From positions 1-60,546 of IMG/VR virus record IMGVR_UViG_3300028024_000009: DNA of 60,546 bases; one strand, 5' to 3'. Position 1 is the first letter of the stretch. The number at the start of each line of letters is the position of its first letter. A program made the position numbers and the translations under genes. The notes under the pieces were generated by a model that searched no databases, had not been told where the DNA came from, and saw nothing but the letters and a program-made list of their open reading frames with translations. Positions 9,084 through 38,868 of this stretch are shown here, one piece after another. The DNA is from a virus. Taxonomy: Duplodnaviria; Caudoviricetes.

Positions 9084-10589
9084 ATGTCCACCGCTCTAGC
9101 CAAGCTTGATCTCTCCGACCCCGGATCGCTGCGGAAGCAGCTAGCCGCATTCAATACGGAGGACCTAATCCTCCTGCGCTGGAAGATGCTATGGAAAGCC
9201 CAAGCCCGGCGCAAACAAATTCCCCCCACCCTGTTACCGAGCGGCAAGCCGTGGAAAGTCTTCGGCGTGCGCTCCGGTCGCGGCTTCGGCAAAACTCTGA
9301 TGGGAGCGAATTGGCTCGGGCAGGCTGCCGCAAGCGATCCCGGGAGCTACAATTTCGTTATCGCTCCGACGCACGACGACGTACGATATACGTGCTTCGA
9401 AGGTCCTACGGGGCTCTTTTCGGTTATCCCCCCGCAGCTCATCGCCGATTGCAATTTGACGCTCCCGTCGATAACCCTGACGAACAGGTCGATCATCAGA
9501 GGATTCGCGGCCGTCGCTCCCGAGCGCTTGCGCGGTCCGCAGAGCAATCGCATCTGGGCGGATGAGGTTGCGTCTTGGCGCGAGCCTAATAAGTCCTGGG
9601 ACAACCTGATGTTCGGGTTGCGCCTCGGTCCGCATCCGCAGATCTTCTGGACTGGCACGCCGAAGCCAACCCCGTTCGTCACCAAGCTGTGCAAATATCT
9701 CACCGACATTCTGGTGTTGGGATCCACATACGAGAATCGGGAAAATCTGGCCGACTCGTTCTACGAGAACGTTGCAAAGTACGAAGGGACGAAGATCGGT
9801 CGTCAGGAACTCTATGGGGAGCTGATCGATCCCGAAGAGTCTGGATTCGTCAAGCGTTCCGATTGGAGGCTTTGGCCGGCGGGCAAGCCGCTGCCTCGCT
9901 TTAAGTTCATCCTCCTCTCCCTGGACACCGCTTTTACTGAGAAAACGTTCGATAAAAAGGAACAGGAGAACGATCCGACTGCCTGTTCCGTTTGGGGTAT
10001 GTTCGAATACGAGCGCAAAGAGCACGTGATGCTGCTCGACTGCTGGGAAGAGCACCTCGGGTTCCCCGAGCTGATCCGCCGTACCAAGCGGGAGATGAAG
10101 AAAACGTACGGAGATGCCGACGAACCCCTGATCAAGGTCGTTCTCCCCGGACAGATTACTCCACACCACGGACGCAAGCCTGATTTGATCTTGATCGAGG
10201 ATAAAGGCAGCGGTATTTCTCTGCGCCAATCTCTGGCAATGGAAAATATATTCGCTGAGCCATATAATCCGGGCCGCATGGATAAGCTCTCCCGGCTCCA
10301 TGCGGTATCTCCCCTCTTCCCCCACAAGCGGGTATGGGCAGTGGAGAGCCGGAACAATCGGGGGAACCCGGTTTCGTGGGCCGATCCGATCATCACTCAG
10401 GTTTGCTCGTATGTCGGCGAGGGTTCTCTCGAGCACGATGACCTTCTCGACACCGCGACACAGGCATTGAAGTTTTTGATGGATAAGTTCCGGATGACGT
10501 TTACGAACAAGGTCGATCCCGACGAGAAGACTAAACAGGCGGCCGATAAGCTCCGACAGAAAAAGGCAGGTAACCCCTATGATCAATGA
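9084..10589 (+). CDS. terL: Terminase large subunit
   Basis: Walker A 'GRGFGKT', 'LRGPQ', Walker B 'WADE', 'TGTP', and nuclease motifs 'SLDTA' and 'HDDLLD'. Confidence 0.95.
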   Translation: MSTALAKLDLSDPGSLRKQLAAFNTEDLILLRWKMLWKAQARRKQIPPTLLPSGKPWKVFGVRSGRGFGKTLMGANWLGQAAASDPGSYNFVIAPTHDDVRYTCFEGPTGLFSVIPPQLIADCNLTLPSITLTNRSIIRGFAAVAPERLRGPQSNRIWADEVASWREPNKSWDNLMFGLRLGPHPQIFWTGTPKPTPFVTKLCKYLTDILVLGSTYENRENLADSFYENVAKYEGTKIGRQELYGELIDPEESGFVKRSDWRLWPAGKPLPRFKFILLSLDTAFTEKTFDKKEQENDPTACSVWGMFEYERKEHVMLLDCWEEHLGFPELIRRTKREMKKTYGDADEPLIKVVLPGQITPHHGRKPDLILIEDKGSGISLRQSLAMENIFAEPYNPGRMDKLSRLHAVSPLFPHKRVWAVESRNNRGNPVSWADPIITQVCSYVGEGSLEHDDLLDTATQALKFLMDKFRMTFTNKVDPDEKTKQAADKLRQKKAGNPYDQ

Positions 10590-11186: not shown

Positions 11187-13790
11187 ATGGCTACCGCTGA
11201 AGGTGAAGTGCTACCCGTAGAGTCCGACGACGAGGATCCAATCGAAACTGATGATGGCGGAGCCATTCTCAAGCTTCAAAAGGACGAGAAGGAATCCTCA
11301 CCCCCGGCTAATGAGACCGAATTCTATCGGAATCTGGCGGAGGAGATTCCAGACTACTATCTGGTCCAGCTCGGCGAGCAGCTGAAGAAGGCTATCGAGC
11401 AAGACAAGAAGGACCGCGAGGAACGCGACAAACAGCAGGCCGAGTCGATCAAGAGAACCGGATTCGGGGGCGAGGCTCCAGGCGGTGCCTCTTTCATGGG
11501 CGCGTCGAAGGCGGTTCACCCGATGCTCGGGAAGGCTGCAATTGACTTTGGCTCACGCATGATCGCTGAGCTGTTCCCCCCTGAAGGCCCCGTGAGGGAT
11601 TACATCCCCGGCGAAGCAACCCAGGAACGCGTTGATAAGGCACGGCGCAAATGCGCCTACATGAATTGGCAGTTCAAGGTTCAGATGCCGGAGGCCTACA
11701 ACCAGACTGAGCAGATGCTGGTTCAAGATGTGATGGGAGGCTCTCAGTACATCCGAATCGTGTGGGACGAGCGTCGCCGGCGTCCGGTTTATCAGTTCAT
11801 TCCGATTGATGAAGTCTACCTGCCATCGGCCGCTAGCGACTACTACACGTCGGAGCGTATCACTTACGCGGAGACCATCACGCAGCTCGAGTTCGAAAAT
11901 CGCGTTCGTGCCAAGATCTATCTGAAGGTCAAGGATCCGCCGCCATCGCAGGCTCCCGAGCGCACTGAATCGCAAAAGGCTACGGACAGAATCGCGGGCA
12001 ACAAGCCGGAGCAGCTGAATCAGTCGGGCTCGAGAATGGTGTATCTGTCGGAAACCTTCCTCGAGATCGAGCAGAATGGTAGACTTCGCATTCCGGGTGA
12101 GGAGCGCGGCGAAGGGTCTCCCGAGATGCTCGAGGTCGATCCACTACCGTACCTCATCTCGGTCGATGCCCAGACCGGTAAGATTCTGTCGATCGTTCGT
12201 AATTGGGAAGAGGAGGACAAGAACTACGAGCCCATCCGCTGGATGACTGATTTCCCGTTCCTTGTATGGAGGGGTGCTGTCGGTGCGTCTCTCGGACAAA
12301 TCATCGGATCTCTCAGTGGCGCTGCTACTGGTGCTCTACGAGCTTTGCTGGATAGCGCTCATATTAACAACATTCCAACCCTGCTGAAGTTGAAGGGTGC
12401 GAATATGCCTGGCCAGTCTATCGAGACTGGGGTTGGGCAGATCATCGAGATCGAGGGCGGAGTGGCTCCCGATCAGGATATCCGGAAGCTGTTGATGGCC
12501 ATCCCGTACAATGAGCCGTCCTTGACTCTCTTACAGCTCCTTGGCTTCCTGGGCGACGCAGGGGAAGGCGTCGTGCAGATGACGTTCACGAAGTTCGTCG
12601 AATCGGGTCGTCCAGACATGCCCGTCGGGACCACTCTCGCCCTCATTGAGCAGGGAATGAAAGTCCTTGCCGGCATCCATAAGCGGATGCACTCTTCGAT
12701 GGACAAGTTGATTCGACACTTGCATCGTATCAACCGAATGTACGTTACGGACGACGAGATCAAGAACGACACGGGGGAGATGCTCGCGCTCCGGTCTGAC
12801 TTCGAAGGACCGCTTGATGTGGTTCCGATCTCCGATCCGGAAGTGTTTTCGGACGTGCAGCGGTTCGCTCAACTCCAGCTAATCTCACAGCGGGCGATGA
12901 CACTGCCGATGCTCTATGACCTGAGGAAGGTCGAGGAGCTGATCCTCTCCCGTACAAAGGTTCCGAACGCCAAGGAGTTGTTGCTCCCGTCAAACACTCC
13001 GAAGGAGATGAATGCCGTCAACGAGAACATGGCGATGGCGCTCGGTCAGGGGGTCGCGGCGTTCCCGGAGCAAGATCATCTTGCACATATTCAAGTCCAC
13101 GTCGACTTCTGGAACAATCCATTCCTCGGCAAACAGAACCCGGTACTGGTGCAAAAGCTCGCGCCGAAGTTCGTCCAACACCTGATGGAGCATATTCTCC
13201 TATGGTACGTAAGTCATACGGTGGAGATCGTCTCAAAGGAGGCCGGTAAAGACGTCGGGGCACTATTGAAGTACCGTGATCCGGAGACTCGTGCGGAGCT
13301 TGATCGCACGCTCGCGGCAGCCTCGGCCGGGGTACTCCTCGACGTGAATGAGAAATTTGCTAAGTTGCCCCCGATCATCGACGAGGCCTGGCAGATCGCT
13401 CAGAAGATTGCATCCTCCCAGATGCCACAGGATCCCGCTTCGGCTGCTGCGGTTCAGATCGCTCAGATGGACAACGCGACCAAGGCGAAGAAGATCGACA
13501 CGGATGCGCAGATCGCTTCGATGAAGCACGGTGGAGAACAGCAGAAGGTTCAGGCGGAACTCGGAGATCGACAGCTGGCACGTATTGCCGAGGCTGCGAA
13601 TGAGCAGCGGCGTCAGGAGGGCGACGACCGACGCACACAGCTCGACAACGCAACGAAGGAGCGTACGAATCTCCAGGACAACATGACCGCTCTCACTATC
13701 GCGGACGCCGAAGTGCAGAGCAAAGAGAAAGTAGCGGTTTCAAAAGGCACCGGGGTCAATCCCGGATCAAAGCAACCAAGCGGAGAATAA
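11187..13790 (+). CDS. Portal protein (P22-like, long C-terminal helical extension)
   Basis: 867 aa, follows terL. Motifs 'HPML..A..DF', 'YMNWQ', 'PVGTTLALIEQG' and 'QDHLAHIQVH'. Confidence 0.9.
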   Translation: MATAEGEVLPVESDDEDPIETDDGGAILKLQKDEKESSPPANETEFYRNLAEEIPDYYLVQLGEQLKKAIEQDKKDREERDKQQAESIKRTGFGGEAPGGASFMGASKAVHPMLGKAAIDFGSRMIAELFPPEGPVRDYIPGEATQERVDKARRKCAYMNWQFKVQMPEAYNQTEQMLVQDVMGGSQYIRIVWDERRRRPVYQFIPIDEVYLPSAASDYYTSERITYAETITQLEFENRVRAKIYLKVKDPPPSQAPERTESQKATDRIAGNKPEQLNQSGSRMVYLSETFLEIEQNGRLRIPGEERGEGSPEMLEVDPLPYLISVDAQTGKILSIVRNWEEEDKNYEPIRWMTDFPFLVWRGAVGASLGQIIGSLSGAATGALRALLDSAHINNIPTLLKLKGANMPGQSIETGVGQIIEIEGGVAPDQDIRKLLMAIPYNEPSLTLLQLLGFLGDAGEGVVQMTFTKFVESGRPDMPVGTTLALIEQGMKVLAGIHKRMHSSMDKLIRHLHRINRMYVTDDEIKNDTGEMLALRSDFEGPLDVVPISDPEVFSDVQRFAQLQLISQRAMTLPMLYDLRKVEELILSRTKVPNAKELLLPSNTPKEMNAVNENMAMALGQGVAAFPEQDHLAHIQVHVDFWNNPFLGKQNPVLVQKLAPKFVQHLMEHILLWYVSHTVEIVSKEAGKDVGALLKYRDPETRAELDRTLAAASAGVLLDVNEKFAKLPPIIDEAWQIAQKIASSQMPQDPASAAAVQIAQMDNATKAKKIDTDAQIASMKHGGEQQKVQAELGDRQLARIAEAANEQRRQEGDDRRTQLDNATKERTNLQDNMTALTIADAEVQSKEKVAVSKGTGVNPGSKQPSGE

Positions 13791-14296: not shown

Positions 14297-14935
14297 ATGA
14301 AATACCTCGTCTCAGCTCTCATTCTTCTGTTCGGGTTCTCGAGCATGGCTTCGGCCGAGAACCTCAAATTCACGGTCGGCCAGCAGGTGAACACCAACGG
14401 CTCGGTCACCCCCACTCTGACATGGTGTACCGAGCAAGTGACTTCTCCGGGACTCACCTGCGCGGGAAGCGCTCCAGCGAGTGCCTGTACCGCTTCCGGT
14501 GATTGGAGCGGGTCGAAAGCCGCCTCTGGCTCCGAGACCTTGGCAGCGGTATCAACCACGAAAACGTACAGTCTCCAGTGCTCGTGGCCCGGTTCGGATC
14601 AGTTTACCGTCAAGTGGACTCCACCGACGACTAACTCGGACGGCTCCCCCCTGACTGACTTGAAAGGATTTCATGTCTATTACTCGACCTCGAGTTCGAT
14701 GTCGCAGAATCAGCTTAAGGATGTTCAGAATCCAGCGGCGGGGAGTGTGATCATCGGACCGGGACTCGCGCCTGCTACTTACTATGTGGTCGTAAGCGCG
14801 TATAACGTGCCGGGCGCGGAGTCGACTAAGGTGCCAAGCCCACCTCTGAGTCGAGCCGTTTCATCCGGAGCGGTCGTCGGCCAAACTGTTAAGGTCACGT
14901 TTCCGGCCGCCCCGACTAACCTTACCGTCGAATGA
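14297..14935 (+). CDS. Secreted fibronectin type III domain protein
   Basis: Signal peptide ending ASA, and FN3 motif 'WTPPTTNSDGSPLTDLKGF.VYY...L...TYY.VVSAYN..G.ES'. Confidence 0.8.
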   Translation: MKYLVSALILLFGFSSMASAENLKFTVGQQVNTNGSVTPTLTWCTEQVTSPGLTCAGSAPASACTASGDWSGSKAASGSETLAAVSTTKTYSLQCSWPGSDQFTVKWTPPTTNSDGSPLTDLKGFHVYYSTSSSMSQNQLKDVQNPAAGSVIIGPGLAPATYYVVVSAYNVPGAESTKVPSPPLSRAVSSGAVVGQTVKVTFPAAPTNLTVE

Positions 14936-18178: not shown

Positions 18179-19108
18179 ATGGCAGTTCCCATGCGGAGTA
18201 CAGACTTTCGTTCAATCGTCGAACCGATCATGAACGAGAGCTTCGACGGCATCTGGACCCAGAGGGCCGACGAATACAAGATGATCTTCACGGTGCGCCC
18301 GGGCACCCCACGCAACTACCACGAAGAGCCGGTTCTCTTCGGGTTCGGCGCGGCCCCGGCACTGCCGGACGGCCAGCCGGTCACCTACCAGTCGGGCGGT
18401 GTGATCTACATCGCGCGATACGTTTATCAGGTCTTCGGTCTGGCGTTCGCGCTGACCAAGGTCCTGGTCGAGGACGGTGATCACATCTCGATTGGTACCA
18501 CGTACGCAGAACACCTCGCGATGTCTCTCATCGAGACGAAGGAGCTGATCTGCGCGAACATCATGAACCGCTCGTTCAATGCCGCGTATCGAGGCGGCGA
18601 CGGGCAGGCTCTGGTGTCCACGGCTCATCCGATCATCGCTCAGTCGGGTGGTCCGAGCACGTACAGCAACCAGCTGACAACGCCTGCGGCTCTGTCGCAG
18701 ACTTCCCTGGAGCAGATGTTGATCCAGATCCGCAACGCCTACGACGATACGGGACGGCGCATCCGCCTCGTGCCGAAGAAGATTGTGGCGGGACCGAGCA
18801 ACGTCTTCCAGGCCGAAGTGCTGCTGAAGAGCGTGCTGCGCACGGGAAGCGCTAACAACGACATCAACCCTGTGAAGTCAATGGGGATGCTGCCGGATGG
18901 TCAGGCGAATCTCTCGCGCATCACGAGCACCACGGCGTGGTGGATCCAAACGGACGCTCCTCGCGGTCTCCAGCTGCTGACGCGCCGGAAACTCGAGAAG
19001 AGCATGGAAGGTGACTTCGAAACCGACTCCATGCGCTACAAGGCGACCGAGCGCTACATCCCGGGCTGGACCAACGCACGTACGGTGTACGGTACTCCCG
19101 GTATCTAA
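18179..19108 (+). CDS. Major capsid protein (HK97 fold, Mu gpT-like)
   Basis: 309 aa; 'GDG.AL....HP', 'LS.TSLEQ', 'EGDFET..MRYKA.ERY..GW...R..YG'; strongly biased codons and AAGGAG RBS. Confidence 0.92.
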   Translation: MAVPMRSTDFRSIVEPIMNESFDGIWTQRADEYKMIFTVRPGTPRNYHEEPVLFGFGAAPALPDGQPVTYQSGGVIYIARYVYQVFGLAFALTKVLVEDGDHISIGTTYAEHLAMSLIETKELICANIMNRSFNAAYRGGDGQALVSTAHPIIAQSGGPSTYSNQLTTPAALSQTSLEQMLIQIRNAYDDTGRRIRLVPKKIVAGPSNVFQAEVLLKSVLRTGSANNDINPVKSMGMLPDGQANLSRITSTTAWWIQTDAPRGLQLLTRRKLEKSMEGDFETDSMRYKATERYIPGWTNARTVYGTPGI

Positions 19109-19973: not shown

Positions 19974-20312
19974 ATGCGTCCGATCACACAGACGTTGTCG
20001 GATGCCAGCGGGGGCGCGAAAGCGACTCCCGTCATTCCTTTGGACATCTACCCCACCCCGTTCAACGTGTCTCTGCAAGCGAATGTCACGGGTGCAGCTA
20101 CGTTCACCGTGGAGTTCACCAATGACGATGTTTTCGCCGTGGGATACGATCCCAACGCGGGAACCTCCCTGTGGACTCCCATTACTGGGATGACGGCTGC
20201 CTCCGCCGACGCGAATGCCACCCTCATCTCGCCGGTGACGGCTGTTCGCATGCGATTGACCGCAGGAGCTGGGAGTGTAGTTCTGAGGATCACTCAATCG
20301 GGGATCCAGTGA
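19974..20312 (+). CDS. Virion structural protein
   Basis: Beta-rich small protein ending 'PVTAVR......G...L...Q.G'. Confidence 0.65.
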   Translation: MRPITQTLSDASGGAKATPVIPLDIYPTPFNVSLQANVTGAATFTVEFTNDDVFAVGYDPNAGTSLWTPITGMTAASADANATLISPVTAVRMRLTAGAGSVVLRITQSGIQ

Positions 20313-20848
20313 TGAAGAAGATACTCCTTTGTCTTCTTGGTCTCCTCTCGATTCCGATCGCTCTCTCCCAGACGGGGGGTGGGATCCAGGGAGGGATCAA
20401 CCTGACGACCGGTATCATTACCGGAAGTCTCGGAGTCGTGAATGGAGGGACGGGGCTTACTGCAGCAGCCGATGACAATCTACTAGTTGGAAATGGAACC
20501 GTATGGCAATCCAAGGCAGTTCCGGATTGCCAGGATACCTCAGGGAGCCATCTCAACTATACGGCCTCTACCAACGCCTTTTCCTGTGGGGTGAGCGGCT
20601 CGTTCAGCGGAACGAGCGTTTCCCTAGGGGGCGGGGCTCTTCTCGCGGGGGCCTGCGCATCGAACACGACGACCGTGACCGGGGCAACGACTTCTATGGC
20701 TGCTGTGGCAAGCCCGAATACCTACCCCGGCGATGGCTCTACGTGGTCGGCTCAAGTCACTTCGGCGAACACCGTAACCACTCGAGTCTGCGCTGTCGTA
20801 GCGCTCACTCCGACGGCTTCCACATACAACATTCGGGTCATCCGCTAG
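20312..20848 (+). CDS. Short fibre-like protein with N-terminal signal peptide
   Basis: MKKILLCLLGLLSIPIALS|Q, a 'LGVVNGGTG' fibre repeat, and a segment paralogous to the 23179 gene. Confidence 0.7.
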   Translation: MKKILLCLLGLLSIPIALSQTGGGIQGGINLTTGIITGSLGVVNGGTGLTAAADDNLLVGNGTVWQSKAVPDCQDTSGSHLNYTASTNAFSCGVSGSFSGTSVSLGGGALLAGACASNTTTVTGATTSMAAVASPNTYPGDGSTWSAQVTSANTVTTRVCAVVALTPTASTYNIRVIR

Positions 20849-20857
20849 GAGAATCCC

Positions 20858-21229
20858 ATGAAAGGCTTCAAGAACTCAACCCGGATGCGTTCGGGTTTCA
20901 CCTACCCAACCTCGGCGGGCTTTACCACTTCGACTGGCAAGGTGCAGAATATCTCATATTCTCGCAAGACTCCCCGTCGAGGGCCGGCCAAGTTCGCCGA
21001 GGGGGGGCAGATCGATTCATCGCTGCATTCCTTCAAAGGCGACAGTCAACTGAATGTCGAGCACGGGCCAAGCGGGGGGCTTCGACCGGGATTCACCAGA
21101 GGGGGTTATGCCGCCAAATATGCGAAGGGAGGCCAGATCCCTTCGGCAAAAGTTGCCGCTCGGGAAGCGGTCGCAAAGCATGTGGCGACCCCGGCTCCGA
21201 AAGGTCACAAAGGCCTGAAGAGTTGCTAA
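20858..21229 (+). CDS. Basic internal-protein-like with FAEGG/FTRGG/YAKGG motifs
   Basis: AGGAG RBS, K/R/G-rich. Confidence 0.7.
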   Translation: MKGFKNSTRMRSGFTYPTSAGFTTSTGKVQNISYSRKTPRRGPAKFAEGGQIDSSLHSFKGDSQLNVEHGPSGGLRPGFTRGGYAAKYAKGGQIPSAKVAAREAVAKHVATPAPKGHKGLKSC

Positions 21230-21336
21230 TCCGCCACAGCTAGCGTAGTATCCCGGGCTGGTAACGGTCCGGGATCTCTCCTTCACCTAAGCCGGCTGCA
21301 CAAAGTAGGCTGTCAACATGCTCCGAGAAGGCATCG

Positions 21337-22392
21337 ATGGCTACCAGCGGCACAATCTCTACAACGGTTTTCAAGACCCGTAAGGTCATCGATCACGCCT
21401 TCCGGCGTACCAAGCTCGCACCTCAACAGATTACGGCCGAGTATATCGAAACGGCCAACGATCTGTTGTACCTCTACCTGTCCACTCTCACGAGTAAGGG
21501 GATCGCGCTATGGTGCATCGAGAAGCAGATTCTGCCGATGTACGAGAATGTTCAGACAGTCCCGTGCCCGCGTGGCACTGTCGATATTCTGAATGCCAAT
21601 CTGAGAACTTCCAATCGATTCGGGGGCACTGCCTCAGCGAGCGAAGGAGATGCAGAGAATGCCTTCGACGGGGACATCGACACCGAGTGTGTTCAATCTG
21701 CACCAGCTGGATGGATCCAGCTTGCGCTAGATAGTGGGGCTCAAGCTTCGGTCTTTGGAATTCTGCCCGGAACGAGCGGTGAATGGGATTTCTCCATTCA
21801 GGGATCGACGGATGGCGTTACATGGACCGAGCTGTACACCGCGACCGCCCAAGCGATGGTCGACGGAGAATGGCTCTGGGTAGATATCGAGGGAGTGCTA
21901 GCCTACGCTTTCTATCGACTCAAGGCGAACAACACGACAGTGCTCGATGTGCGTGAGTTCTACTTCGGGAACTTACTCGATGAGATCCCCATCGCCAAGA
22001 TCAACCGGGACGACTACGCGAATCTTCCGAATAAGTTTTTCGCGGGACGACCGGTCCAGTTCTGGTATGACAAGCAGCGAACGACCCCCCTGATGACGCT
22101 TTGGCCGGCGCCCGAGGCTCAGTACACGTTCTCGCAGCTTGTGGTCTATCGACAGCGCTACGTCCAGGACGTTGGGACGATGACGCAGGAGCTGGATATC
22201 CCCCAGCGTTGGTACCTTGCAATCGTGATGGAACTCGCGTTGCAGCTCTGCAATGAGATCCCGGAGGTTGAACCCGGGCGGTGGGCGGAGCTGAAGCCCG
22301 AGGCGGATGAGAAACTGCGGGAGGCCTGGGACTCCGAGACGGACTCGTCTCCTTCATACATCCTCCCGAATATCTCCTGCTACACTAGGTAG
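21337..22392 (+). CDS. Head-tail adaptor/tail tubular protein with discoidin-like insertion
   Basis: 'MATSGT', 'NRDDY.NLPNK...GRP.Q.W.D', 'LWP.P', 'DIPQRW', and an inserted 'NAFDGD..T' domain. Confidence 0.75.
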   Translation: MATSGTISTTVFKTRKVIDHAFRRTKLAPQQITAEYIETANDLLYLYLSTLTSKGIALWCIEKQILPMYENVQTVPCPRGTVDILNANLRTSNRFGGTASASEGDAENAFDGDIDTECVQSAPAGWIQLALDSGAQASVFGILPGTSGEWDFSIQGSTDGVTWTELYTATAQAMVDGEWLWVDIEGVLAYAFYRLKANNTTVLDVREFYFGNLLDEIPIAKINRDDYANLPNKFFAGRPVQFWYDKQRTTPLMTLWPAPEAQYTFSQLVVYRQRYVQDVGTMTQELDIPQRWYLAIVMELALQLCNEIPEVEPGRWAELKPEADEKLREAWDSETDSSPSYILPNISCYTR

Positions 22393-22394
22393 CC

Positions 22395-22718
22395 ATGCCG
22401 ATCTACCTCGACACGCGCGGTCGATCCACCCTCGGGATCGGGATTTGTGCCCGGTGCTCTCGCAAGATGTCGCTTGAGGATCTCTATTCGGACCCGAACT
22501 CCCCAGGCCTGATGGTATGTAAAGATGACCTCGACCAACTCGACCCCTACAGATTGCCTGCTCGACAGACAGAGCGTATCAACCTTGATTTTGTCCGTCC
22601 AGACTTACCTCTTACGGGAGTGGGTCCTTCCACAAATCTGCTCAGCTATGATTGGGCAACTGAAGATGGACGGTTCTTCGGAACCGAAGACGGAAACTAC
22701 TTTCAGGTAGAACCATGA
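22395..22718 (+). CDS. Small Cys-containing virion protein
   Basis: 'ICARCS.K', 'GLMVC...LD..DPY.L' and 'RPD'. Confidence 0.65.
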   Translation: MPIYLDTRGRSTLGIGICARCSRKMSLEDLYSDPNSPGLMVCKDDLDQLDPYRLPARQTERINLDFVRPDLPLTGVGPSTNLLSYDWATEDGRFFGTEDGNYFQVEP

Positions 22719-23182
22719 CCATACCCGTTCCAGTCCCCGTAAGTCAGTTTCCGGATGCGACGATCCCTCTCACGGGGAGCGAGCTGGTTCCGCTCGTTCA
22801 GGGGGGGATTACGAAGAAGACGACCGCTTCGACCTTTGCGGTCTTCGCAACCCTGCTGCTTCCGGAAATCTTCAGAGCGATCCCGGCGGGCAACTCGAAC
22901 AATGTTAGCGCGAAGGGGGCTCTTCGGTTGTTCTTGGATACGGCTGCCGGGGATGCTACGGTCACGGGATTCTACCCCACGGATGATCCTCTGGTTCTAT
23001 GGCGGGATGGACAGATTCTGATCGTGGCCAACTCCGGGGGGGCGAATGCTCTGACCCTAGCGGTCGGGATCGGCTCGATCCCCGCGAACCAGATCTACGG
23101 AGTAACGGATATCACACTGCCCCCCCACGGTTCCCAGATGCTTGTTTATAGCGGTACTCTCCAAAAGCTGGTAATGGTATGA
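22715..23182 (+). CDS. Tail-fibre-associated protein
   Basis: 'SQFP.A..PLTGSELVPLVQGG.TKK' fibre-anchor-like N-terminus. Confidence 0.65.
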   Translation: MTIPVPVPVSQFPDATIPLTGSELVPLVQGGITKKTTASTFAVFATLLLPEIFRAIPAGNSNNVSAKGALRLFLDTAAGDATVTGFYPTDDPLVLWRDGQILIVANSGGANALTLAVGIGSIPANQIYGVTDITLPPHGSQMLVYSGTLQKLVMV

Positions 23183-24657
23183 ACATTCGAACCCAGATCA
23201 AGAACTTTCTCATCGGTCTTACAGTCGCGGCCAGTGGGGTCGCGGTTGCGGCAACGTTCAATCTTTTCTCGCCGGCGACCGGTGTCCTCAAGGGCAACGC
23301 GAGCACGTACGTCACGACGGCCGCGAACTCGGCGGATATCCGAGGCCTGTGGACTGGCTCGTGTGATATCACCAAATTCTTGCGCGGAGATGGAGCGTGC
23401 GCTCAAGTCTCGCTGACGACGAATGTCACGGGGATCTTGCCAGTTCCGAATGGGGGCACCGGAGCCGCGACCCTCACGGGACTGATGCAAGGGAACGGTG
23501 CGAGCCCGATCACGAGCGTTGCCCAGGTGTCGGGAGGTATTCCCTATTTCAATACGGTCTCGACGATGGCGAGTTCGGCCGCTCTGACCGCCAATGCCCT
23601 GATGCTCGGGGGCGGGGTCGGTTCGTCTCCTACCACCCTGGGATCTCTCGGAACCACGACGACGGTTCTGCACGGTAATGCGGCAGGCGCTCCGACATTC
23701 GGAGCCGTTGCTCTGACAACCGACGTCAGCGGAGTTCTGCCCGTTGCGAACGGTGGCACCAACCTGAATGTCTCGGCCGACGACAACGTGATGGTTGGCA
23801 ACGGCACGACGTGGCAATCCAAAGCTCTGCCGACGTGCACGGACACCGGCGGTAATCATCTCAATTACGACATCTCGACGAATACCTTTTCGTGCGGCAC
23901 ATCGGCGCCCGGGGGCTTGACCGGATTCGCGAATCCGACCGCCTCCGTGGGCCTTAGCGCCGTCAACGGCGTCGCGACGACCGCGATGCGCTCCGATGCG
24001 GCACCGGCACTTTCTCAGTCGATCGCCCCGACGTGGACGGGGATCCACACGTTCAGCGCCAACAATGCGGCTCCACTGACCGTAACGAACTCGTTCACGG
24101 GATCCTACACGGTCAACGTAACCAACACGAGTACCGTCAGCGGTGACACATCGCGGTATACCCTTGCTGCTGGCTCTACCGCGGTTGCGCTATTCGCTGC
24201 GAATCAAAACCAGGCCGCAGCGATTGTCACTGGGGGGCCTACCGGGCCGCAGTTCGTGTTGCGTACGTTGGGGGCCTCCACTCCCCTCGTGTTCGGTACC
24301 GCCAACACCGAGCGCATGCGGATCAGCGATACGGGAGTAACGATTGGCGGTGCGCCTGTTCCTACATGGAAATTCACTTGGGCAAAATTCGATACAGCGG
24401 GAGCCGCCTGCGTTGTGGTGGCTGGTACTGGGTCATCCAATGTGAGTTCATGCACCTATAGCGGCGTTGGTGCATATACCGTAAATTTTACGGCTAACTA
24501 TCCCTCCGCGCCCACCTGTACCGCTACTTCTGCTTCGGCAACGCGGTATATCACCGTGGGGTCATCGACCAGTCAGGCGATTCTAGCTCAAGCTATTTTT
24601 CCGGGGGGCGGTGCAGGCGACGGCATTTTCAGTCTCACCTGTATCGGCAACCCTTAA
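23179..24657 (+). CDS. Tail-fibre-like protein with signal-peptide-like N-terminus
   Basis: 'GILPVPNGGTG', 'GVLPVANGGT', 'FLRGDG', 'FGT.NTERMRI..TG', 'GVGAYTVNF...Y...P'; N-terminal '...LIGLTVAASGVAVA|A'. Confidence 0.8.
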   Translation: MNIRTQIKNFLIGLTVAASGVAVAATFNLFSPATGVLKGNASTYVTTAANSADIRGLWTGSCDITKFLRGDGACAQVSLTTNVTGILPVPNGGTGAATLTGLMQGNGASPITSVAQVSGGIPYFNTVSTMASSAALTANALMLGGGVGSSPTTLGSLGTTTTVLHGNAAGAPTFGAVALTTDVSGVLPVANGGTNLNVSADDNVMVGNGTTWQSKALPTCTDTGGNHLNYDISTNTFSCGTSAPGGLTGFANPTASVGLSAVNGVATTAMRSDAAPALSQSIAPTWTGIHTFSANNAAPLTVTNSFTGSYTVNVTNTSTVSGDTSRYTLAAGSTAVALFAANQNQAAAIVTGGPTGPQFVLRTLGASTPLVFGTANTERMRISDTGVTIGGAPVPTWKFTWAKFDTAGAACVVVAGTGSSNVSSCTYSGVGAYTVNFTANYPSAPTCTATSASATRYITVGSSTSQAILAQAIFPGGGAGDGIFSLTCIGNP

Positions 24658-24669
24658 AAGGAGATCGAG

Positions 24670-24873
24670 ATGCTGAACGAACATGGTACAAAGATCCTCG
24701 GTGTAGTCATCGCGCTACTCGGCTCGGTAATGCTGCTGACCCCCGAGCAGATCACGGCAATCATGGGGGAGCGAGGTCCGGGAATCATGACAGCGATTGC
24801 GGGACTCCTCACGGTGCTCCGAGGTTTCCAGAATTCCGGCAGTCTGCCGGGTGGTCCTAAGAAGGAGGAATGA
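24670..24873 (+). CDS. Holin-like two-TM protein
   Basis: Two hydrophobic helices, charged C-terminus, AAGGAG RBS. Confidence 0.6.
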   Translation: MLNEHGTKILGVVIALLGSVMLLTPEQITAIMGERGPGIMTAIAGLLTVLRGFQNSGSLPGGPKKEE

Positions 24874-25211
24874 TGAAAGCTCTACGGGTTGGACTCTTCG
24901 GAGTCATTTTCGTTCTGTTGGCGGCGTGCGCGAGTTCGCCACTGGCAGTCCCGACCACTTTTCAGGGGCGCGTCGACTATGCCGACAGCACCCTGACCGC
25001 CGTGGTTAACGCAACGACCGTCTCTCTTTCGGCCGGTCAGCTGTCGGTGAACGAGGCGAAGTCGGTCCGCGACATTGCGGAGCAGGCTCGAACGCTTCTG
25101 GACGCGGCACGAGCGGCTAGCGGCACTCCGGTCGGTGATCAGAACCTGACCTTGGCGATTGGAGTGCTGCAGAATATCCAAACATACCTGAACAAGAGGA
25201 ACCCCGGATGA
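24870..25211 (+). CDS. Lipoprotein (possible spanin-like lysis accessory)
   Basis: Lipobox 'LLAAC' after a hydrophobic signal. Confidence 0.7.
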   Translation: MMKALRVGLFGVIFVLLAACASSPLAVPTTFQGRVDYADSTLTAVVNATTVSLSAGQLSVNEAKSVRDIAEQARTLLDAARAASGTPVGDQNLTLAIGVLQNIQTYLNKRNPG

Positions 25212-25399
25212 AAGTCCAAGTAGCGCTGAATCTCGCAGTCGAGCTTCTCATCCAGGCTCAGAAGTTGTCCGCACTCGTTCATGCCGCGCAGATGAAGGGT
25301 AAAACCGATCTGACGGAAGAGGAGACGGCACAGCTCCTCTCGGATCGCGATGCCGCCTTCGACCGCCTGGACCAGGCGATCAAGAACGCGGAGGGGTAA
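25208..25399 (+). CDS. Small helical protein
   Basis: Coupled to the lipoprotein gene. Confidence 0.6.
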   Translation: MKVQVALNLAVELLIQAQKLSALVHAAQMKGKTDLTEEETAQLLSDRDAAFDRLDQAIKNAEG

Positions 25400-25404
25400 G
25401 TCCC

Positions 25405-26064
25405 ATGGCCGAGTCAATGACCTTTACGAGCCTCAAGGAAGACATGCGTCGTTATCTCGAGAGAGGTAATGCGGCGGACACGGAGGTGTTTGCGCAGATC
25501 CCCCGCTTGATCACGCTCGCCGAAAGGTCGTTGGCTCGCGCCATTAAGGTTCAGGGATTCATCGTCCCGTACATCACAACCCTGCAAGCGGGAGTATCCG
25601 TCTACGCGAAACCCGCTCGGTGGCGTGAGACGGTCTCGATGAACTACGGCGGCAATGCGGCATTCACGGACGCAGGTAACAACCGACGCCAGTTGTTCCC
25701 GCGTGTGCTCGAATATCTGCGAACTTACTGGCCGAACTCGGACGAGCGCGATGTCCCAGAATTCTTCGCCGATTACGATTACAACCACTGGCTGATTGCC
25801 CCGACACCGGTCGCAGCGTTCAACTGGGAAGTGGTTCTCTACCAGCTGCCACCCCTGTTGGGGGATGACAACGGGACGAACTGGCTGACTGACTACGCAC
25901 CGAACGCGTTGCTATACAGATGTCTTCTCGAGGCCTCTCCGTTCCTGAAGAACGACGAGCGCATTCAGACTTGGCAAAATCTTTACACCGCGGAGCTGGG
26001 GGCTTTGGACACCGAAGACCTCCAGAACATCGCCAACCGGGAGTCGGTAAGGACCGAGAACTAA
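25405..26064 (+). CDS. Tail adaptor protein
   Basis: 'IP..I.LAE..L.R', 'APTP', 'TNWL...AP..LLY..L.EA.PFLKNDERI..W'. Confidence 0.8.
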   Translation: MAESMTFTSLKEDMRRYLERGNAADTEVFAQIPRLITLAERSLARAIKVQGFIVPYITTLQAGVSVYAKPARWRETVSMNYGGNAAFTDAGNNRRQLFPRVLEYLRTYWPNSDERDVPEFFADYDYNHWLIAPTPVAAFNWEVVLYQLPPLLGDDNGTNWLTDYAPNALLYRCLLEASPFLKNDERIQTWQNLYTAELGALDTEDLQNIANRESVRTEN

Positions 26065-26065
26065 C

Positions 26066-27667
26066 ATGCCGTTCAATGAAGTATTCGGCGGCAACGCCAT
26101 CTATCCGGCCTCCCCAACGTTCTTGGAGTTGACTCTCGTCGAGAACACTCAGCTCGAATGGCCTCTCGAGCAGAACATGGCGGGCGGCACGATTCTGGCG
26201 ACTGAGATCGAGATTTTTCCGGCCGGCCCCGGTCTCTCCGTGATGATGCCGGATGCGACACAGGGGTCACCCGGATACACGACGACTTTCTTCAATGCCG
26301 CAGCCGATACGTTCACCGTTAAGAGTTCGACCGGAGTGACGCTCGCAACCGTGGCCTCCGGGGATGCCTGGACCATATGGCTTCGAGATAACACCACGCC
26401 TTCTGGCCTCTGGCGTGTCTTTCAGATGGGCGTGGGGATCTCCAACGCGAATGCCGCTGATCTGGCGGGTGCCGGCCTCGTCGCGATCTCGACTACCCTG
26501 AATGAGGAAATCGAGGTCTCCAGTCAGGTGGTTGATTACGGGATCGTCAATCTCGATCGCGCTCGACTGATTCAATGGCTCGGAGGCGTCGGAAATCTCA
26601 CGCTCCCGGATGCGGCGACGGTCGGAGCGAACTGGTTCGTCTCGATCAAGAATTCTGGCTCCGGGATCGTTACGGTCTTGCCTCAAGGCGGCGCCACGAT
26701 TGATGGACAAGCGTCGTTGCCGCTGAGTCTCGAGGATTCCTCCTGGCTCGTAACGAACGGGGTCAATTGGTTCACACTCGGCTTCGGTCAATCAAATCCC
26801 AGCGTCTTCGACTTCCTTGCGATGTCAGTCGCCGGATCGGGGAGTTCCGCTCTCACAGGGTCGCAGCTTAACCGCGTGTCGTATGAGTTCACCGGGGTAC
26901 TGACGGGCAACCGGAGTATCATCGTTCCGAACACGGTCCAGCAGTACTGGGTCTTCAACAACACTACGGGCCCGTTCACGCTCACTATCAAGACGGCGGC
27001 GAATCCGGGTGTGACGGTTCCCCAGGGAACTCGCATTATTCTCTACTGCAATGGTACGGATGTCGTCAACGCAGAGACGAATACCGCGAGCCTCCCTGCG
27101 GTTGTTCAGGGAGATACACTGTACGGTTCGGCTCCGGGAATTCTCACCGCGCTGCCGAAGACCCCATCGCTGTATCAGGTGCTGAAGAATTCTGGAGCAT
27201 CGAACAACCCCGCCTGGGGGGCCCCGCCGTTCCTCGCGGCTAAGGTGACTCGCATCGGTACTCAGGCGGCTGCCAGCGGATCGCCCACAATCATCTCTTG
27301 GAATGCGGAGGTAACCGACGAGGGGGCGTGGCATGATAATGTTACTAATCCCACTCGGCTGACGGTTCCTCCCGGGGTCAATTGGTACAAAGCCGAAGCT
27401 CTGGTCATCATCAATCTGACGAGTGCGAACGTTCCGTTCACGGTTCAGCTCTTCGCCCTGATTAACGGCTCGGGGGGAAACTCCCCGGTCGCTCAGGCTT
27501 ATTTCCCCTCCCTCCCTGGAGCGTCTCTATCGATCCCGATGTACGTCTCGACCGGTTGGGAAGCTTGCGTTCCGGGCCAGTACATCGAGTTTGAGGTGAT
27601 CGTTACCGGAACCGGCGGGGGAACCATTCAAGGAACTTCCATCGGCATGATCGAGGGTCGCCCCTAA
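26066..27667 (+). CDS. Tail fibre/spike protein
   Basis: 'TG.LTGNR...VP......V.N.T.G..TLT.KT', 'QGD.LYGSA', and a C-terminal beta-sandwich. Confidence 0.75.
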   Translation: MPFNEVFGGNAIYPASPTFLELTLVENTQLEWPLEQNMAGGTILATEIEIFPAGPGLSVMMPDATQGSPGYTTTFFNAAADTFTVKSSTGVTLATVASGDAWTIWLRDNTTPSGLWRVFQMGVGISNANAADLAGAGLVAISTTLNEEIEVSSQVVDYGIVNLDRARLIQWLGGVGNLTLPDAATVGANWFVSIKNSGSGIVTVLPQGGATIDGQASLPLSLEDSSWLVTNGVNWFTLGFGQSNPSVFDFLAMSVAGSGSSALTGSQLNRVSYEFTGVLTGNRSIIVPNTVQQYWVFNNTTGPFTLTIKTAANPGVTVPQGTRIILYCNGTDVVNAETNTASLPAVVQGDTLYGSAPGILTALPKTPSLYQVLKNSGASNNPAWGAPPFLAAKVTRIGTQAAASGSPTIISWNAEVTDEGAWHDNVTNPTRLTVPPGVNWYKAEALVIINLTSANVPFTVQLFALINGSGGNSPVAQAYFPSLPGASLSIPMYVSTGWEACVPGQYIEFEVIVTGTGGGTIQGTSIGMIEGRP

Positions 27668-29197
27668 ATGTACACCCCAACCCTCATTCGCTCGCAACCG
27701 GGGATCAAACGGGACGGAACCGAGTTCGAAGGCGATTTTTACACGGACGGGCAGTGGTGCCGATTTCAGCGTGGGCTGCCGCGTAAGATCGGCGGTTATC
27801 GGAACACCACCCCCCGACTGCGCGAGAAAGTCTACGGGATGTCATCGTTCTCCGCTGACCTCCTAAACTATGTCGCTTGTGGTGAGGGAAGTTTTCTCGA
27901 GCAGGTGTCCATCGACCAGAACGGCAACCCGACCGCGATCTCTGATCGCACTCCAGTCGCATTCGTGCCGAACGTGAACAATGTCTGGCAATTTGCGAAT
28001 CTCCCGAGTGCGGTCGCCTCAGCGACTGACTTGATCGCGCACGGAGCCCCGAATCTCGCGGATATCGCTAATCAGACTTCGACTCAGATCTGGTACGGCC
28101 AAGCCGACCTCGGAACTCCGCTAGTAGCTACGGGGCTCGATCCCCAGAGCGGCGGGGCGTGCGCTATCGGTCCGTACCTCTTCGGTTATGGCAATGCGGG
28201 CTTCGTTCAGTGGACGGCGCCGAACGATCCCACGACGTTCCAGAACGAGGCGAGGGTGACAGGCCAGAAGATCGTTTACGGTCGCGAGTTGCGCGGCGGG
28301 GGGAACGGCCCCGCTGGAATCTTCTGGTCCCTCGATTCTCTGCTTCGAGCCACATTCATCGCCGGAGTGACTGATCCGGCCGCAGACCCAGTCTTCGCGT
28401 TCGATACACTGGCAAGTGATCTCTCGATTCTCTCGTCCCGGGGAGTCGTCGAATACGACGGTGTCTACTACTGGTGGGATACCGGTCGCCCCTTGATGTT
28501 CAACGGTGTCGTGCGCGAAGTGCCGAATACCATGAACATCAACTACTTTCTGGACGGACTGAATTTCTCGCAGCGGCAGAAGATCTTCGCGATGAAGGTT
28601 CCTCGGTTCGGGGAGATCTGGTGGTGCTATCCTCGAGGCAATGCGACCGAGTGCACTCACGCCATCATCCTAAACGTGAGGGAGAACACGTGGTATGACA
28701 CGGAGCTTCCGCCGTCGATGCGAACCTCCGGAATTTACGCATCTGTCTACCCGAAACCGTTCATGACCGATGCGACGGAGTCACCCACTGGATTCGGCTT
28801 ATGGCAGCACGAGACGGGGGTCGATGAAGTCTCTAGCTCGCTAGTCAACCCAATCCCCTCGTTCTTCCAGACAGCGGATATCGCCATGATGACTACTGAG
28901 AAGCCGACCAATCAGAGTCTAAGCGTGGCAGTGATCGAGCCCGACTTCGTTCAAGTGGGGAACATGACCGTTACCGTCACAGGTAAGGCGAACGCTCGCG
29001 CTCCGATCCAGGAGAGTGCGGCCAAGACGTTCGTCCCGGATACGGGGTCTCTCACTGCCGATGAGCAGATTGTAAGACTCAAGGAAGAGCGACGTGAGCT
29101 GCGGTTTAAGTTCGAAACGAACACTCCGAATGGCGACTACCAGATGGGCCAGCCTCTCGTGCACCTCGAACCGACCGACTCGAGGGTGACCACATGA
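27668..29197 (+). CDS. Tail nozzle / DNA-stabilisation protein (P22 gp10-like)
   Basis: 'PGI.RDGT', 'RF..GLP.KIGG', 'FGEIWW.YP...ATEC...II.N..EN.WY', 'EPDF'. Confidence 0.8.
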   Translation: MYTPTLIRSQPGIKRDGTEFEGDFYTDGQWCRFQRGLPRKIGGYRNTTPRLREKVYGMSSFSADLLNYVACGEGSFLEQVSIDQNGNPTAISDRTPVAFVPNVNNVWQFANLPSAVASATDLIAHGAPNLADIANQTSTQIWYGQADLGTPLVATGLDPQSGGACAIGPYLFGYGNAGFVQWTAPNDPTTFQNEARVTGQKIVYGRELRGGGNGPAGIFWSLDSLLRATFIAGVTDPAADPVFAFDTLASDLSILSSRGVVEYDGVYYWWDTGRPLMFNGVVREVPNTMNINYFLDGLNFSQRQKIFAMKVPRFGEIWWCYPRGNATECTHAIILNVRENTWYDTELPPSMRTSGIYASVYPKPFMTDATESPTGFGLWQHETGVDEVSSSLVNPIPSFFQTADIAMMTTEKPTNQSLSVAVIEPDFVQVGNMTVTVTGKANARAPIQESAAKTFVPDTGSLTADEQIVRLKEERRELRFKFETNTPNGDYQMGQPLVHLEPTDSRVTT

Positions 29198-38436: not shown

Positions 38437-38868
38437 GTGGGAATAAAAGAGACCCTGACGAGTGGGATGTCACGTGAGGTGATTATCGTGATGGTACTTC
38501 TGGCAATGACCGGACTATGGGCTTGGGCTTTCGGCAAGGTACCGATAGACGGAGAGCACGGATTCGTCATGCGTGTGACTCTCTCTGACGACGTGAAAAC
38601 TATAGTCGGCAAGGACGTTGAGGGCCTCAAGAAGCAATCTCAGGAGACGTCTCAGAAGGTGGACAATATCAAGATTGCCCTCGACCGGATCCTGGCTGAT
38701 TACTACAGCAAACGGATCAAGGACGCAACTCGTCAGCGCTGCAAGCTCCCTCTAGGAGAAATCGCGGAACGCGACCGGCTCTGGGACCAAATCAACGGCG
38801 ACGTGAACCTGTACCGCCAGTATTCGGGTGACACGAGCTACCAGCGACCGACTTGCCAGGACGTTTGA
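38437..38868 (+). CDS. Membrane-anchored protein with coiled coil (antiholin/spanin-like?)
   Basis: N-terminal TM, coiled coil, two Cys; last gene of the + strand operon. Confidence 0.55.
   Translation: MGIKETLTSGMSREVIIVMVLLAMTGLWAWAFGKVPIDGEHGFVMRVTLSDDVKTIVGKDVEGLKKQSQETSQKVDNIKIALDRILADYYSKRIKDATRQRCKLPLGEIAERDRLWDQINGDVNLYRQYSGDTSYQRPTCQDV

Follow-up and report, generated by a model that had tools for sequence, protein, structure and literature searches.

Candidate exported tail fibres with Sec-type leaders and paired cysteines in a tailed phage related to Caulobacter phages RW and RLK

Introduction

Two-component receptor-binding systems of tailed phages include gp9/gp10 with the fibres of T4, the gp66-gp63.1 pair of G7C, and the adaptor of SP6/K1-5. 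In all adaptor and fibre systems that we know of, both partners are leaderless and are assembled in the cytoplasm, and the morphogenesis of tailed phages is taught as a purely cytoplasmic process. Here we analyse the IMG/VR virus record IMGVR_UViG_3300028024_000009, the 60,546 bases of which are referred to as the window. Two genes of the window encode fibre-like proteins of 178 and 492 residues that start with Sec-type leaders and have cysteines that can be paired. A third gene, directly upstream of the longer fibre gene, encodes a leaderless, cysteine-free protein of 155 residues (g155), which is a candidate anchor or adaptor of the longer fibre. Judged from sequence, a tail fibre with an adaptor is an arrangement of a known kind, and the export of the distal partner would be the new feature.

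Virion proteins with Sec leaders are known from the filamentous Ff phages, in which pIII and pVIII carry such leaders and pIII contains disulfides formed in the periplasm. Unlike tailed phages, however, Ff particles are assembled by extrusion through the envelope, without a cytoplasmic capsid or tail and without lysis. Tailed phages export signal-peptide and signal-arrest-release endolysins, spanins, and exclusion lipoproteins such as T5 Llp and Cor, whose genes often lie beside receptor-binding genes. The export predicted here resembles that of these products in being Sec-dependent and preceding lysis, but they are enzymes or small lipoproteins, and none of them is fibre-like, modular, or paired with an adaptor. 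Neither fibre-like protein of the window has the lipobox with cysteine at position +1 that marks the Llp and Cor type; a neighbouring 113-residue protein has the sequence LLAAC.

The mosaic adhesive trimer (MAT) fibres of Bdellovibrio bacteriovorus form trimers that resemble phage fibres, and in these proteins a conserved domain directly follows the signal peptide (PMC10769870). According to the accessible part of that report, they have the layout of the 492-residue protein, in which a signal peptide precedes a conserved domain, a stalk made of modules, and tips that vary, and the match is in architecture only. The MAT fibres differ in being encoded by cellular genes of the predator rather than by a virion module, and the same part of the report describes no anchor of the g155 type. 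By analogy, they indicate that phage-fibre-like trimers can fold after Sec export. In phage PhicrAss001, gp22 is described, in the accessible text, as a trimeric virion fibre that has its residues 1-26 in the tail docking hub and carries further fibre proteins (PMC10172136). The locus described here resembles gp22, as far as that text goes, and the tailed-phage adaptor systems in that a small virion-binding protein would carry a longer, variable fibre by its conserved N-terminus, and in that the two genes are adjacent. It differs in that the distal partner has a Sec-type leader and cysteine pairs, and in that the predicted docking element is an N-terminus that would arise by cleavage. The joint production of both partners in the cytoplasm that characterises adaptor systems does not apply here, since the fibre always has a leader and the adaptor does not.

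Results

Leaders of the two fibre-like proteins

The gene for the 178-residue protein (positions 20312-20848, plus strand) begins with an ATG at 20312 that overlaps the TGA of the upstream gene at 19974-20312 (TGATG). Its predicted leader comprises residues 1-19 (20312-20368), with the cut in A-L-S|Q at residues 17-20. The gene for the 492-residue protein (23179-24657, plus strand) begins with an ATG at 23179 that overlaps the stop codon of the g155 gene (22715-23182, plus strand) in the sequence ATGA. Its predicted leader comprises residues 1-24 (23179-23250), with the cut in A-V-A|A at residues 22-25. The sequences of both proteins are free of a lipobox or a membrane anchor. A first-pass annotation, made from the letters of the window alone, had described two virion-module genes that combine fibre repeats with signal-like starts, and the open reading frames (ORFs), motifs, and cysteine counts (four and eight in the mature chains) are as it described them.

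The leaders that it read in these two proteins are conserved among their homologues. Among the listed homologues, our heuristic detected a leader in 100 of 120 for the short protein and in 107 of 149 for the long one, and several of the misses are fragments or have visibly hydrophobic N-termini. The short protein has 154 homologues with E<=1e-3 among 1222 candidates, 120 of which are listed; the long protein has 5222 cluster representatives with E<=1e-3, of which 2222 reach E<=1e-10 and 150 are listed. As background, 7 of 91 ORFs that were chosen greedily from the window are positive by the heuristic, among them the long fibre, a lipoprotein, and a third protein with a leader.

The N-terminus of the long protein was profiled with 98 distinct sequences that were anchored on its conserved N-terminal module (N-module) and required to have a methionine 14-40 residues upstream. 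Lysine or arginine occupies 23-59% of the sequences at positions -24 to -19, the segment from -17 to -9 is uncharged with a mean hydropathy of 2-3, and alanine is found in 67/98 sequences at -5 and in 77/98 at -3, in A-x-A geometry. Exactly at the predicted cut, the entropy of the columns drops abruptly, from about 2.5-3.5 bits before it to about 0-1.5 bits after it, and the mature N-terminus that follows is nearly invariant. The profile thus places the cut where it had been read before, between A24 and A25, and has the charged n-region, the h-region of about 8-12 residues, and the small residues at -3 and -1 of substrates of Sec and signal peptidase I. In all collected proteins and ORFs, a leader precedes the N-module motif in 100 of 100 occurrences, and the motif is never at a bare N-terminus. 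The sole case in which it lies more than 60 residues into the protein comes from an ORF that was called too long and contains an internal MKK start. In related loci, 48 of the 53 ORFs with the N-module have a leader.

A true start downstream of the hydrophobic segments was considered and rejected. Neither segment is closely followed by an in-frame ATG, GTG, or TTG, the ATGs overlap the upstream stop codons, and a later start would also cut into the most conserved module. Chance hydrophobic N-termini are ruled out by the conservation of the leaders.

Modules and cysteines of the long fibre

The N-module of the long protein spans residues 25-74 (23251-23400) and includes the C62-C74 loop with the sequence RGDG. 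Behind it come fibre repeats and the C220..HLNY..C239 unit, and the C-terminal domain, which is variable, contains four cysteines. The motif LxVxNGGT starts at residues 87 and 187, FLRGDG at 67, HLNY at 227, and ERMRI at 378, and the eight cysteines of the mature chain are residues 62, 74, 220, 239, 411, 425, 447, and 488. Throughout the family the N-terminus is conserved and the C-terminus is variable, and the fibre modules are common to leaderless relatives of 500-1400 residues with N-termini of the ISxLP type. The invariant C-x6-RGDG-x-C loop (residues 62-74; 23362-23400) contains an RGD triplet within a putative disulfide loop. The triplet is probably structural, because a cysteine-free form of the RGDG unit, FWRGDGTW, occurs in leaderless fibres.

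The cysteines of these proteins track the leader. Among the relatives of the long protein, the median cysteine content of the mature chain is 1.20% with a leader versus 0.22% without (Mann-Whitney p 9e-13), and the cysteine count is even in 94 of 107 leader-bearing proteins, as compared to 20 of 42 leaderless ones. The form C..RGDG.C with two cysteines was found 88 times with a leader and never without, whereas the cysteine-free S..RGDG.W form appears 32 times in leader-bearing proteins and 14 times in leaderless ones. In the family of the short protein, 119 of 121 leader-bearing members have both cysteines of the C-terminal domain, but of the 32 members in which no leader was detected, 10 have both replaced together (119/2/22/10, Fisher p 2e-6); many of the other 22 are fragments or misses of the heuristic. 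A third module behaves similarly. The fibre-attachment-type motif ISxLP..G.E..P.VQ is located at residues 4-10 in about 13 of 16 regular-expression matches without a leader, a leaderless, cysteine-poor set with a median of 0.2 cysteines per 100 residues. The motif follows the A-x-A site by 2-4 residues in 15 proteins with a leader, one of which seems to match the expression by chance; the median is then 1.4 cysteines per 100 residues, and the count is even and non-zero in 12 of the 15. The joint gain and loss of cysteine pairs in three modules is the pattern that would be expected of disulfides formed after export.

The candidate anchor g155

The protein g155 has the ISxLP..G.E..P.VQ motif at its N-terminus and a conserved C-terminal beta-sandwich. 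An ORF resembling g155 is located immediately upstream of 32 of the 53 N-module ORFs, at distances of -57 to +14 nucleotides. The commonest distance as called is -15 or -18 nucleotides, which corresponds to a stop/start overlap at an internal MKK start. Among 40 distinct g155-like ORFs, 18 have no cysteine, and the only one with a leader-like N-terminus has an over-extended start.

The pair occurs with two tail architectures. In the podovirus-like relatives L003, L026, L030, and L038, whose capsid proteins are 70-77% identical to that of the window, the genes are arranged in the order g351, g107, g155, leader-bearing fibre, vsp219, fibre, vsp509. In a myovirus-like lineage (L008, L012, L014, L017, and others), the g155-fibre pair closes a baseplate module that contains a hub of the E217 gp41 type, Baseplate_J, and DUF2612. 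There the g155 homologue is 241-276 residues long, and its first approximately 130 residues match the N-terminus of the tail-fibre family phrog_12796 (L008, E 4e-32); the 400-residue fibre encoded just 5' of it in L008 matches the same family. The protein g155 is adaptor-like, because its N-terminal domain changes with the tail architecture while its C-terminal domain stays constant. Between the N-terminal motif of g155 and residues 19-58 of gp22 from PhicrAss001 there is a weak match (E 0.0096, domain E 0.075), a Pfam match to Phage_depo_C is below the cut-off, and the look-alikes found in the Atlas search are phage fibre and baseplate proteins, which count as leads only. Additional leaderless ISxLP proteins are encoded in the relatives L003 (4161-5159) and L032 (7127-7645 and 7630-8088), which suggests that a single docking site on the particle is shared by several such proteins or contested among them.

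A complex was predicted from three copies of g155 (alignment of 9 rows) and three copies of fibre residues 25-120 (alignment of 25 rows). The three runs scored 0.92, 0.00, and 0.92 (median 0.92), as against 0.00 for the best of three controls. In calibration, 58 of 80 solved complexes and 2 of 110 mismatched pairs attained the mark set for this score. The runs agreed in at least 45% of their contacts, and the predicted local distance difference test (pLDDT) value of the partner was at least 87. The predicted interface joins residues 112, 114, 130-136, and 141 of g155 to residues 25-29, 31, and 42-44 of the fibre, so that the fibre contacts include the first residues after the predicted cut. 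The pass does not reflect memory of a like complex, because the fibre profile has no solved sequence homologue. The prediction supports binding of the two proteins, and the 492-residue fibre is likely to pair with g155. The first-pass annotation had called the protein at 22715 anchor-like. This role gained support from the coupled pairing (32/53), the tail-fibre N-terminal domain of L008, and the complex prediction, which together stop short of demonstrating attachment to the virion.

The short protein and its lectin-like tip

The 178-residue protein contains a single LxVxNGGT motif at residue 40 and HLNY at residue 80. Cysteine 7 lies in the leader, and the four cysteines of the mature chain are residues 73, 92, 115, and 160. 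The first two flank the HLNY unit (C73..HLNY..C92), and C115 and C160 belong to a C-terminal beta-sandwich of residues ~97-178. The two fibre-like proteins have in common a block of 69 residues with 62% identity, which includes the C..HLNY..C unit.

In the AlphaFold2 model, residues 101-178 have pLDDT values of 97-98, and the mean of the whole protein is 78.7. The solved folds nearest to the C-terminal domain are the H-type lectins discoidin I (Z 7.6) and Helix pomatia agglutinin (Z 6.7), and the C-terminal domains of tailspikes and pyocin fibres, namely Kp32gp38 (Z 7.2), LKA1 gp49 (7.0), phi297 gp61 (6.8), the R2 pyocin fibre (6.2), and AP22 gp54 (5.9); the scores listed by VIA range from 7.6 to 5.3, all below the caution line of this fold comparison at Z 8. 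A search of BFVD gave 16 matches with E<=1e-3, which are C-termini of fibres, tailspikes, and depolymerases together with uncharacterised viral proteins of about 105-123 residues. Foldseek found nothing in the PDB at E<=0.001 (best E 0.098).

Very many metagenomic proteins of about 105-125 residues consist only of a leader and a lectin-like tip with a cysteine pair (P0012, P0020, P0024, P0026, P0028, and others), and several of them are encoded on contigs of 24-48 kb. These could be free secreted lectins or separately attached tips.

The gene at 19974-20312 (plus strand), whose stop codon overlaps the start of the short protein, encodes a leaderless, cysteine-free protein of 112 residues. Homologues of it occur in six related loci besides the window, and in four of the six the next ORF encodes a leader-bearing, fibre-like protein, three times with overlapping codons. 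The positions of homologues include 6326-6643 in L026, 2217-2504 in L032, 2216-2503 in L053, and 5037-5672 in L081. In L032 and L053, the ORF on the 3' side encodes a fibre of 767-801 residues with the N-module. From this gene context, the 112-residue protein may be a partner or second anchor, and its locus a second slot for exported fibres.

Distribution of the family

Searches of Pfam (E<=0.1) and PHROGs (E<=0.01) matched no family for either the 178-residue or the 492-residue protein, and Pfam searches with nine homologues gave nothing above the cut-off. A search of the PDB with the fibre sequence profile produced no matches, even though the PDB holds some MAT fragments. The Atlas searches returned only unnamed viral clusters and leads below 0.9; a lead of 0.83 to a Bdellovibrionota DUF5907 cluster is the sole hint of a relation to the MAT fibres. 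None of the clusters that contain ten of the homologues is named. In a tblastn search with the 492-residue protein, the 178-residue protein, and g155 against 50,697 GenBank phage records, there was no real match except one of 43 residues.

The possibility that the family is bacterial was rejected, as only four loci were found in 185,579 bacterial and archaeal species genomes, and viral contigs gave 58 and 38 loci. The four cellular loci are in a Cellvibrionaceae metagenome-assembled genome (MAG) fragment and in Terriglobia, Bryobacteraceae, and Solibacter MAGs.

Genome context

The window is a whole virus record, the completeness of which is 98% according to the estimate of the source. It represents a near-complete tailed phage related to Caulobacter phages RW and RLK. 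Its closest cultured phages are the Caulobacter phages RW, RLK, KcrB, and GB2A, with 72% identity of the capsid protein and 48% identity of the 509-residue structural protein. The host of these isolates is Caulobacter vibrioides. The virion module on the plus strand contains the large terminase (9084-10589), portal (11187-13790), major capsid protein (18179-19108), virion structural proteins at 25405-26064 and 27668-29197, and ejection-type proteins up to 38142. The replication module, with DNA polymerase A, helicase, and primase, is on the minus strand. A leaderless tail fibre of 533 residues (26066-27667, plus strand) matches phrog_12796 and phrog_38625, has two cysteines, and is kept in all syntenic relatives.

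A cassette of small genes on the plus strand follows the long fibre. It encodes a hydrophobic, holin-like protein of 67 residues directly 3' of the fibre gene (24670-24873), a lipoprotein of 113 residues with the lipobox LLAAC (24870-25211), and a helical protein of 63 residues (25208-25399), none of which matched a Pfam or PHROG family. The cassette (24670-25399) is an optional envelope- or lysis-type unit, which is present in L026 (11941-12769, where the lipoprotein recurs) and missing from L003 and L038. Homologues of the 67-residue protein are also encoded 3' of leader-bearing fibres in the myovirus-like L025 (12338-12514) and L027 (11651-11830).

The third leader-bearing protein of the virion module (14297-14935, plus strand; 212 residues) is encoded between the portal and scaffold-like genes. 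It has the site A-S-A|E, four cysteines in the mature chain (44, 55, 64, and 95), and a weak fibronectin type III match of 24.4 bits (cut-off 25). The conserved 351-residue protein encoded upstream of the anchor (21337-22392, plus strand), which is present in all syntenic relatives and in RLK, weakly matches, with its residues 100-174, the F5/8 type C (discoidin) domain (27.4 bits, cut-off 28.2). A 143-residue protein (38437-38868, plus strand) resembles an i-spanin in its single N-terminal membrane segment, long helical region, and C-terminal cysteine; if it is one, the host should have an outer membrane. We identified no endolysin in the window.

In the genome of RLK (L103, OQ135106.1 33000-52000), the interval between capsid and tail genes encodes a 516-residue protein with 14 cysteines, a 405-residue SGNH-like protein, the endolysin-like gp073c, and the lipoprotein gp071c. 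Slots between modules are hot spots of accessory genes in the phage group of RLK.

Discussion

Sequence comparison established the leader profile, the covariation of cysteines with the leader, and the pairing of the fibre and g155 genes, from which a pathway of fibre production can be proposed. The Sec-type leader would carry the unfolded fibre chain across the inner membrane, and signal peptidase I would cut it after A-x-A, or after A-L-S in the short protein. In the periplasm the cysteine pairs would form disulfides, and the chain would fold into a fibre with a lectin-like tip. The 492-residue protein would be the distal half of a two-part fibre, and its new N-terminus (residues 25-31 and 42-44) would dock on the C-terminal beta-sandwich of g155, which would stay in the cytoplasm and attach to the virion by its fibre-type N-terminus. 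Because the anchor would be cytoplasmic and the fibre periplasmic, the two could come together only once lysis has breached the inner membrane, and virions would be completed at that time or just after it. The 178-residue protein would be a second, shorter exported fibre, perhaps held by the 112-residue protein encoded upstream.

The steps of this pathway differ in their probability. It is very probable that both proteins are exported and oxidatively folded. The completion of virions at lysis is a possible step, for which we put the chance at even or slightly under. The pathway as a whole, an exported and oxidised two-part fibre that is joined to the virion at lysis, seems to us equally likely to be right or wrong. 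The first-pass annotation had proposed the same route, possibly through the 22715 protein, with secreted receptor-blocking decoys as the alternative. Our comparisons support its leaders, the A-x-A geometry, the leader-linked cysteine pairs in three modules, and the role of the anchor; export in the cell, presence in the virion, and addition at lysis go beyond what they show.

Several points weigh against the proposed pathway. The signal-peptide calls come from our own heuristic and position-specific profile, and the homologue sets consist of cluster representatives rather than independent lineages. Cysteine pairs alone do not require export, because the tail of PhicrAss001 has disulfides, and signal peptides are unmentioned in the accessible part of its description (PMC10172136). 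The AlphaFold2 monomer of the long protein has a mean pLDDT of 52.6, too poor for a fold search. One of the three complex runs scored 0.00, and six chains (three of each partner) with our own alignments differ from the inputs on which the complex tool was calibrated. The short protein does not have the N-module that docks on g155, nor any other recognisable attachment module, and its stand-alone relatives of about 110 residues fit a free secreted lectin better than a fibre. The window phage still has a conventional leaderless fibre (26066-27667). Caulobacter phage RLK, with a capsid protein 72% identical, has neither the two leader-bearing fibre genes nor g155, and an endolysin-like protein and a lipoprotein are encoded in their slot instead. 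The leader-bearing fibre genes are therefore accessory and dispensable, and their slot can be occupied by lysis genes as well. The earlier statement that these genes lie inside the virion module is true, but it is weaker evidence than was assumed, given the lysis-type genes in the slot of RLK. In the full-text literature, with subscription journals outside the coverage, we found neither a description of a tailed-phage tail fibre with a Sec signal nor a precedent for a tailed-phage fibre assembled from the periplasm. Effects of dsbA are attributed to host receptors in the accessible part of one report (PMC13412088) and are not relevant here.

Exported and oxidised proteins could also remain outside the virion, as receptor-masking, superinfection-exclusion, or debris-blocking lectins or decoys that share specificity modules with the fibres of the phage. 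The leaders and cysteines are equally expected of such proteins, and stand-alone proteins of about 110 residues with a leader and a tip domain are common. The slot after g107 and g155 is filled by lysis or envelope genes in RLK and by small membrane-protein and lipoprotein genes in the window and L026, and the fibre genes themselves are missing from RLK, their cultured relative. A decoy or exclusion role may apply above all to the 178-residue protein, which is without a recognisable attachment module. However, a function outside the virion leaves unexplained why the N-module is tied to a leaderless partner of the virion-attachment type in two unrelated tail architectures, why a confident interface is predicted at the processed N-terminus, and why in 15 cases the leader directly precedes an ISxLP attachment-type motif. 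Nor does either protein have a lipobox or membrane anchor. We regard this explanation as unlikely, though deserving serious consideration.

Two further explanations retain cytoplasmic steps. The hydrophobic N-terminus could be a structural or membrane-active element, bundled in the anchor trimer or used at infection, in a fibre that is assembled in the cytoplasm and has its cysteines oxidised after release. This would agree with the established cytoplasmic assembly of tailed-phage fibres, and a cytoplasmic anchor whose gene is translationally coupled to that of the fibre would make prompt joint assembly more likely. Disulfides are reported for a tailed-phage tail in the accessible part of the PhicrAss001 description (PMC10172136). 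However, the segment is free to vary in sequence and length and yet keeps its lysine or arginine, hydrophobic core, A-x-A, and sharp conservation boundary at the cut, which argues for a cleaved signal rather than a packed helix. The cysteine pairs are missing from leaderless versions of the same modules (88 vs 0), and the predicted interface uses residues right after the cut, so that a structural role of the N-terminus is improbable. Alternatively, g155 could act off the virion, either as a cytoplasmic chaperone or export-control factor that holds the N-module of the precursor, or as a separate short fibre that is only co-regulated with the long one. The tight coupling of the genes would suit this, the similarity of g155 to gp22 of PhicrAss001 is weak (E 0.0096, domain 0.075), and virion attachment of g155 is a prediction. 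However, the N-terminal domain of g155 is swapped with the tail architecture while the C-terminal domain is constant, as would be the case for an adaptor, the L008 domain belongs to the same family (phrog_12796) as the preceding 400-residue tail fibre, and the look-alikes, although leads only, are phage fibre and baseplate proteins. We give an off-virion g155 little chance of being correct.

Turning back to the exported two-part fibre, we tentatively propose, at somewhat less than an even chance, that widespread uncultured phages with at least two tail architectures build part of their host-recognition apparatus outside the cytoplasm. Their fibres would be exported by Sec and oxidised by DsbA, and the cut N-terminus would fit an anchor on the virion. 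Particles would be fibre-incomplete until the holin breach, and infectivity would depend on Sec and Dsb. If this is true, it is a new assembly route, in which fibres are exported, oxidatively folded, and joined to the particle at lysis, and the Sec system, signal peptidase, and Dsb proteins of the host become determinants of phage infectivity. The route could explain disulfide-stabilised fibres in some environmental phages, and such fibres would be lost or misfolded when receptor-binding proteins are engineered with cytoplasmic expression. The family has remained unseen despite its 5222 representatives, because it has no Pfam or PHROG annotation and is missing from the phage isolates in GenBank; annotation pipelines would tend to drop such fibres as "secreted hypothetical proteins". 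Even if the proteins are secreted lectin-like decoys, they would constitute a large unrecognised class of phage envelope or extracellular factors.

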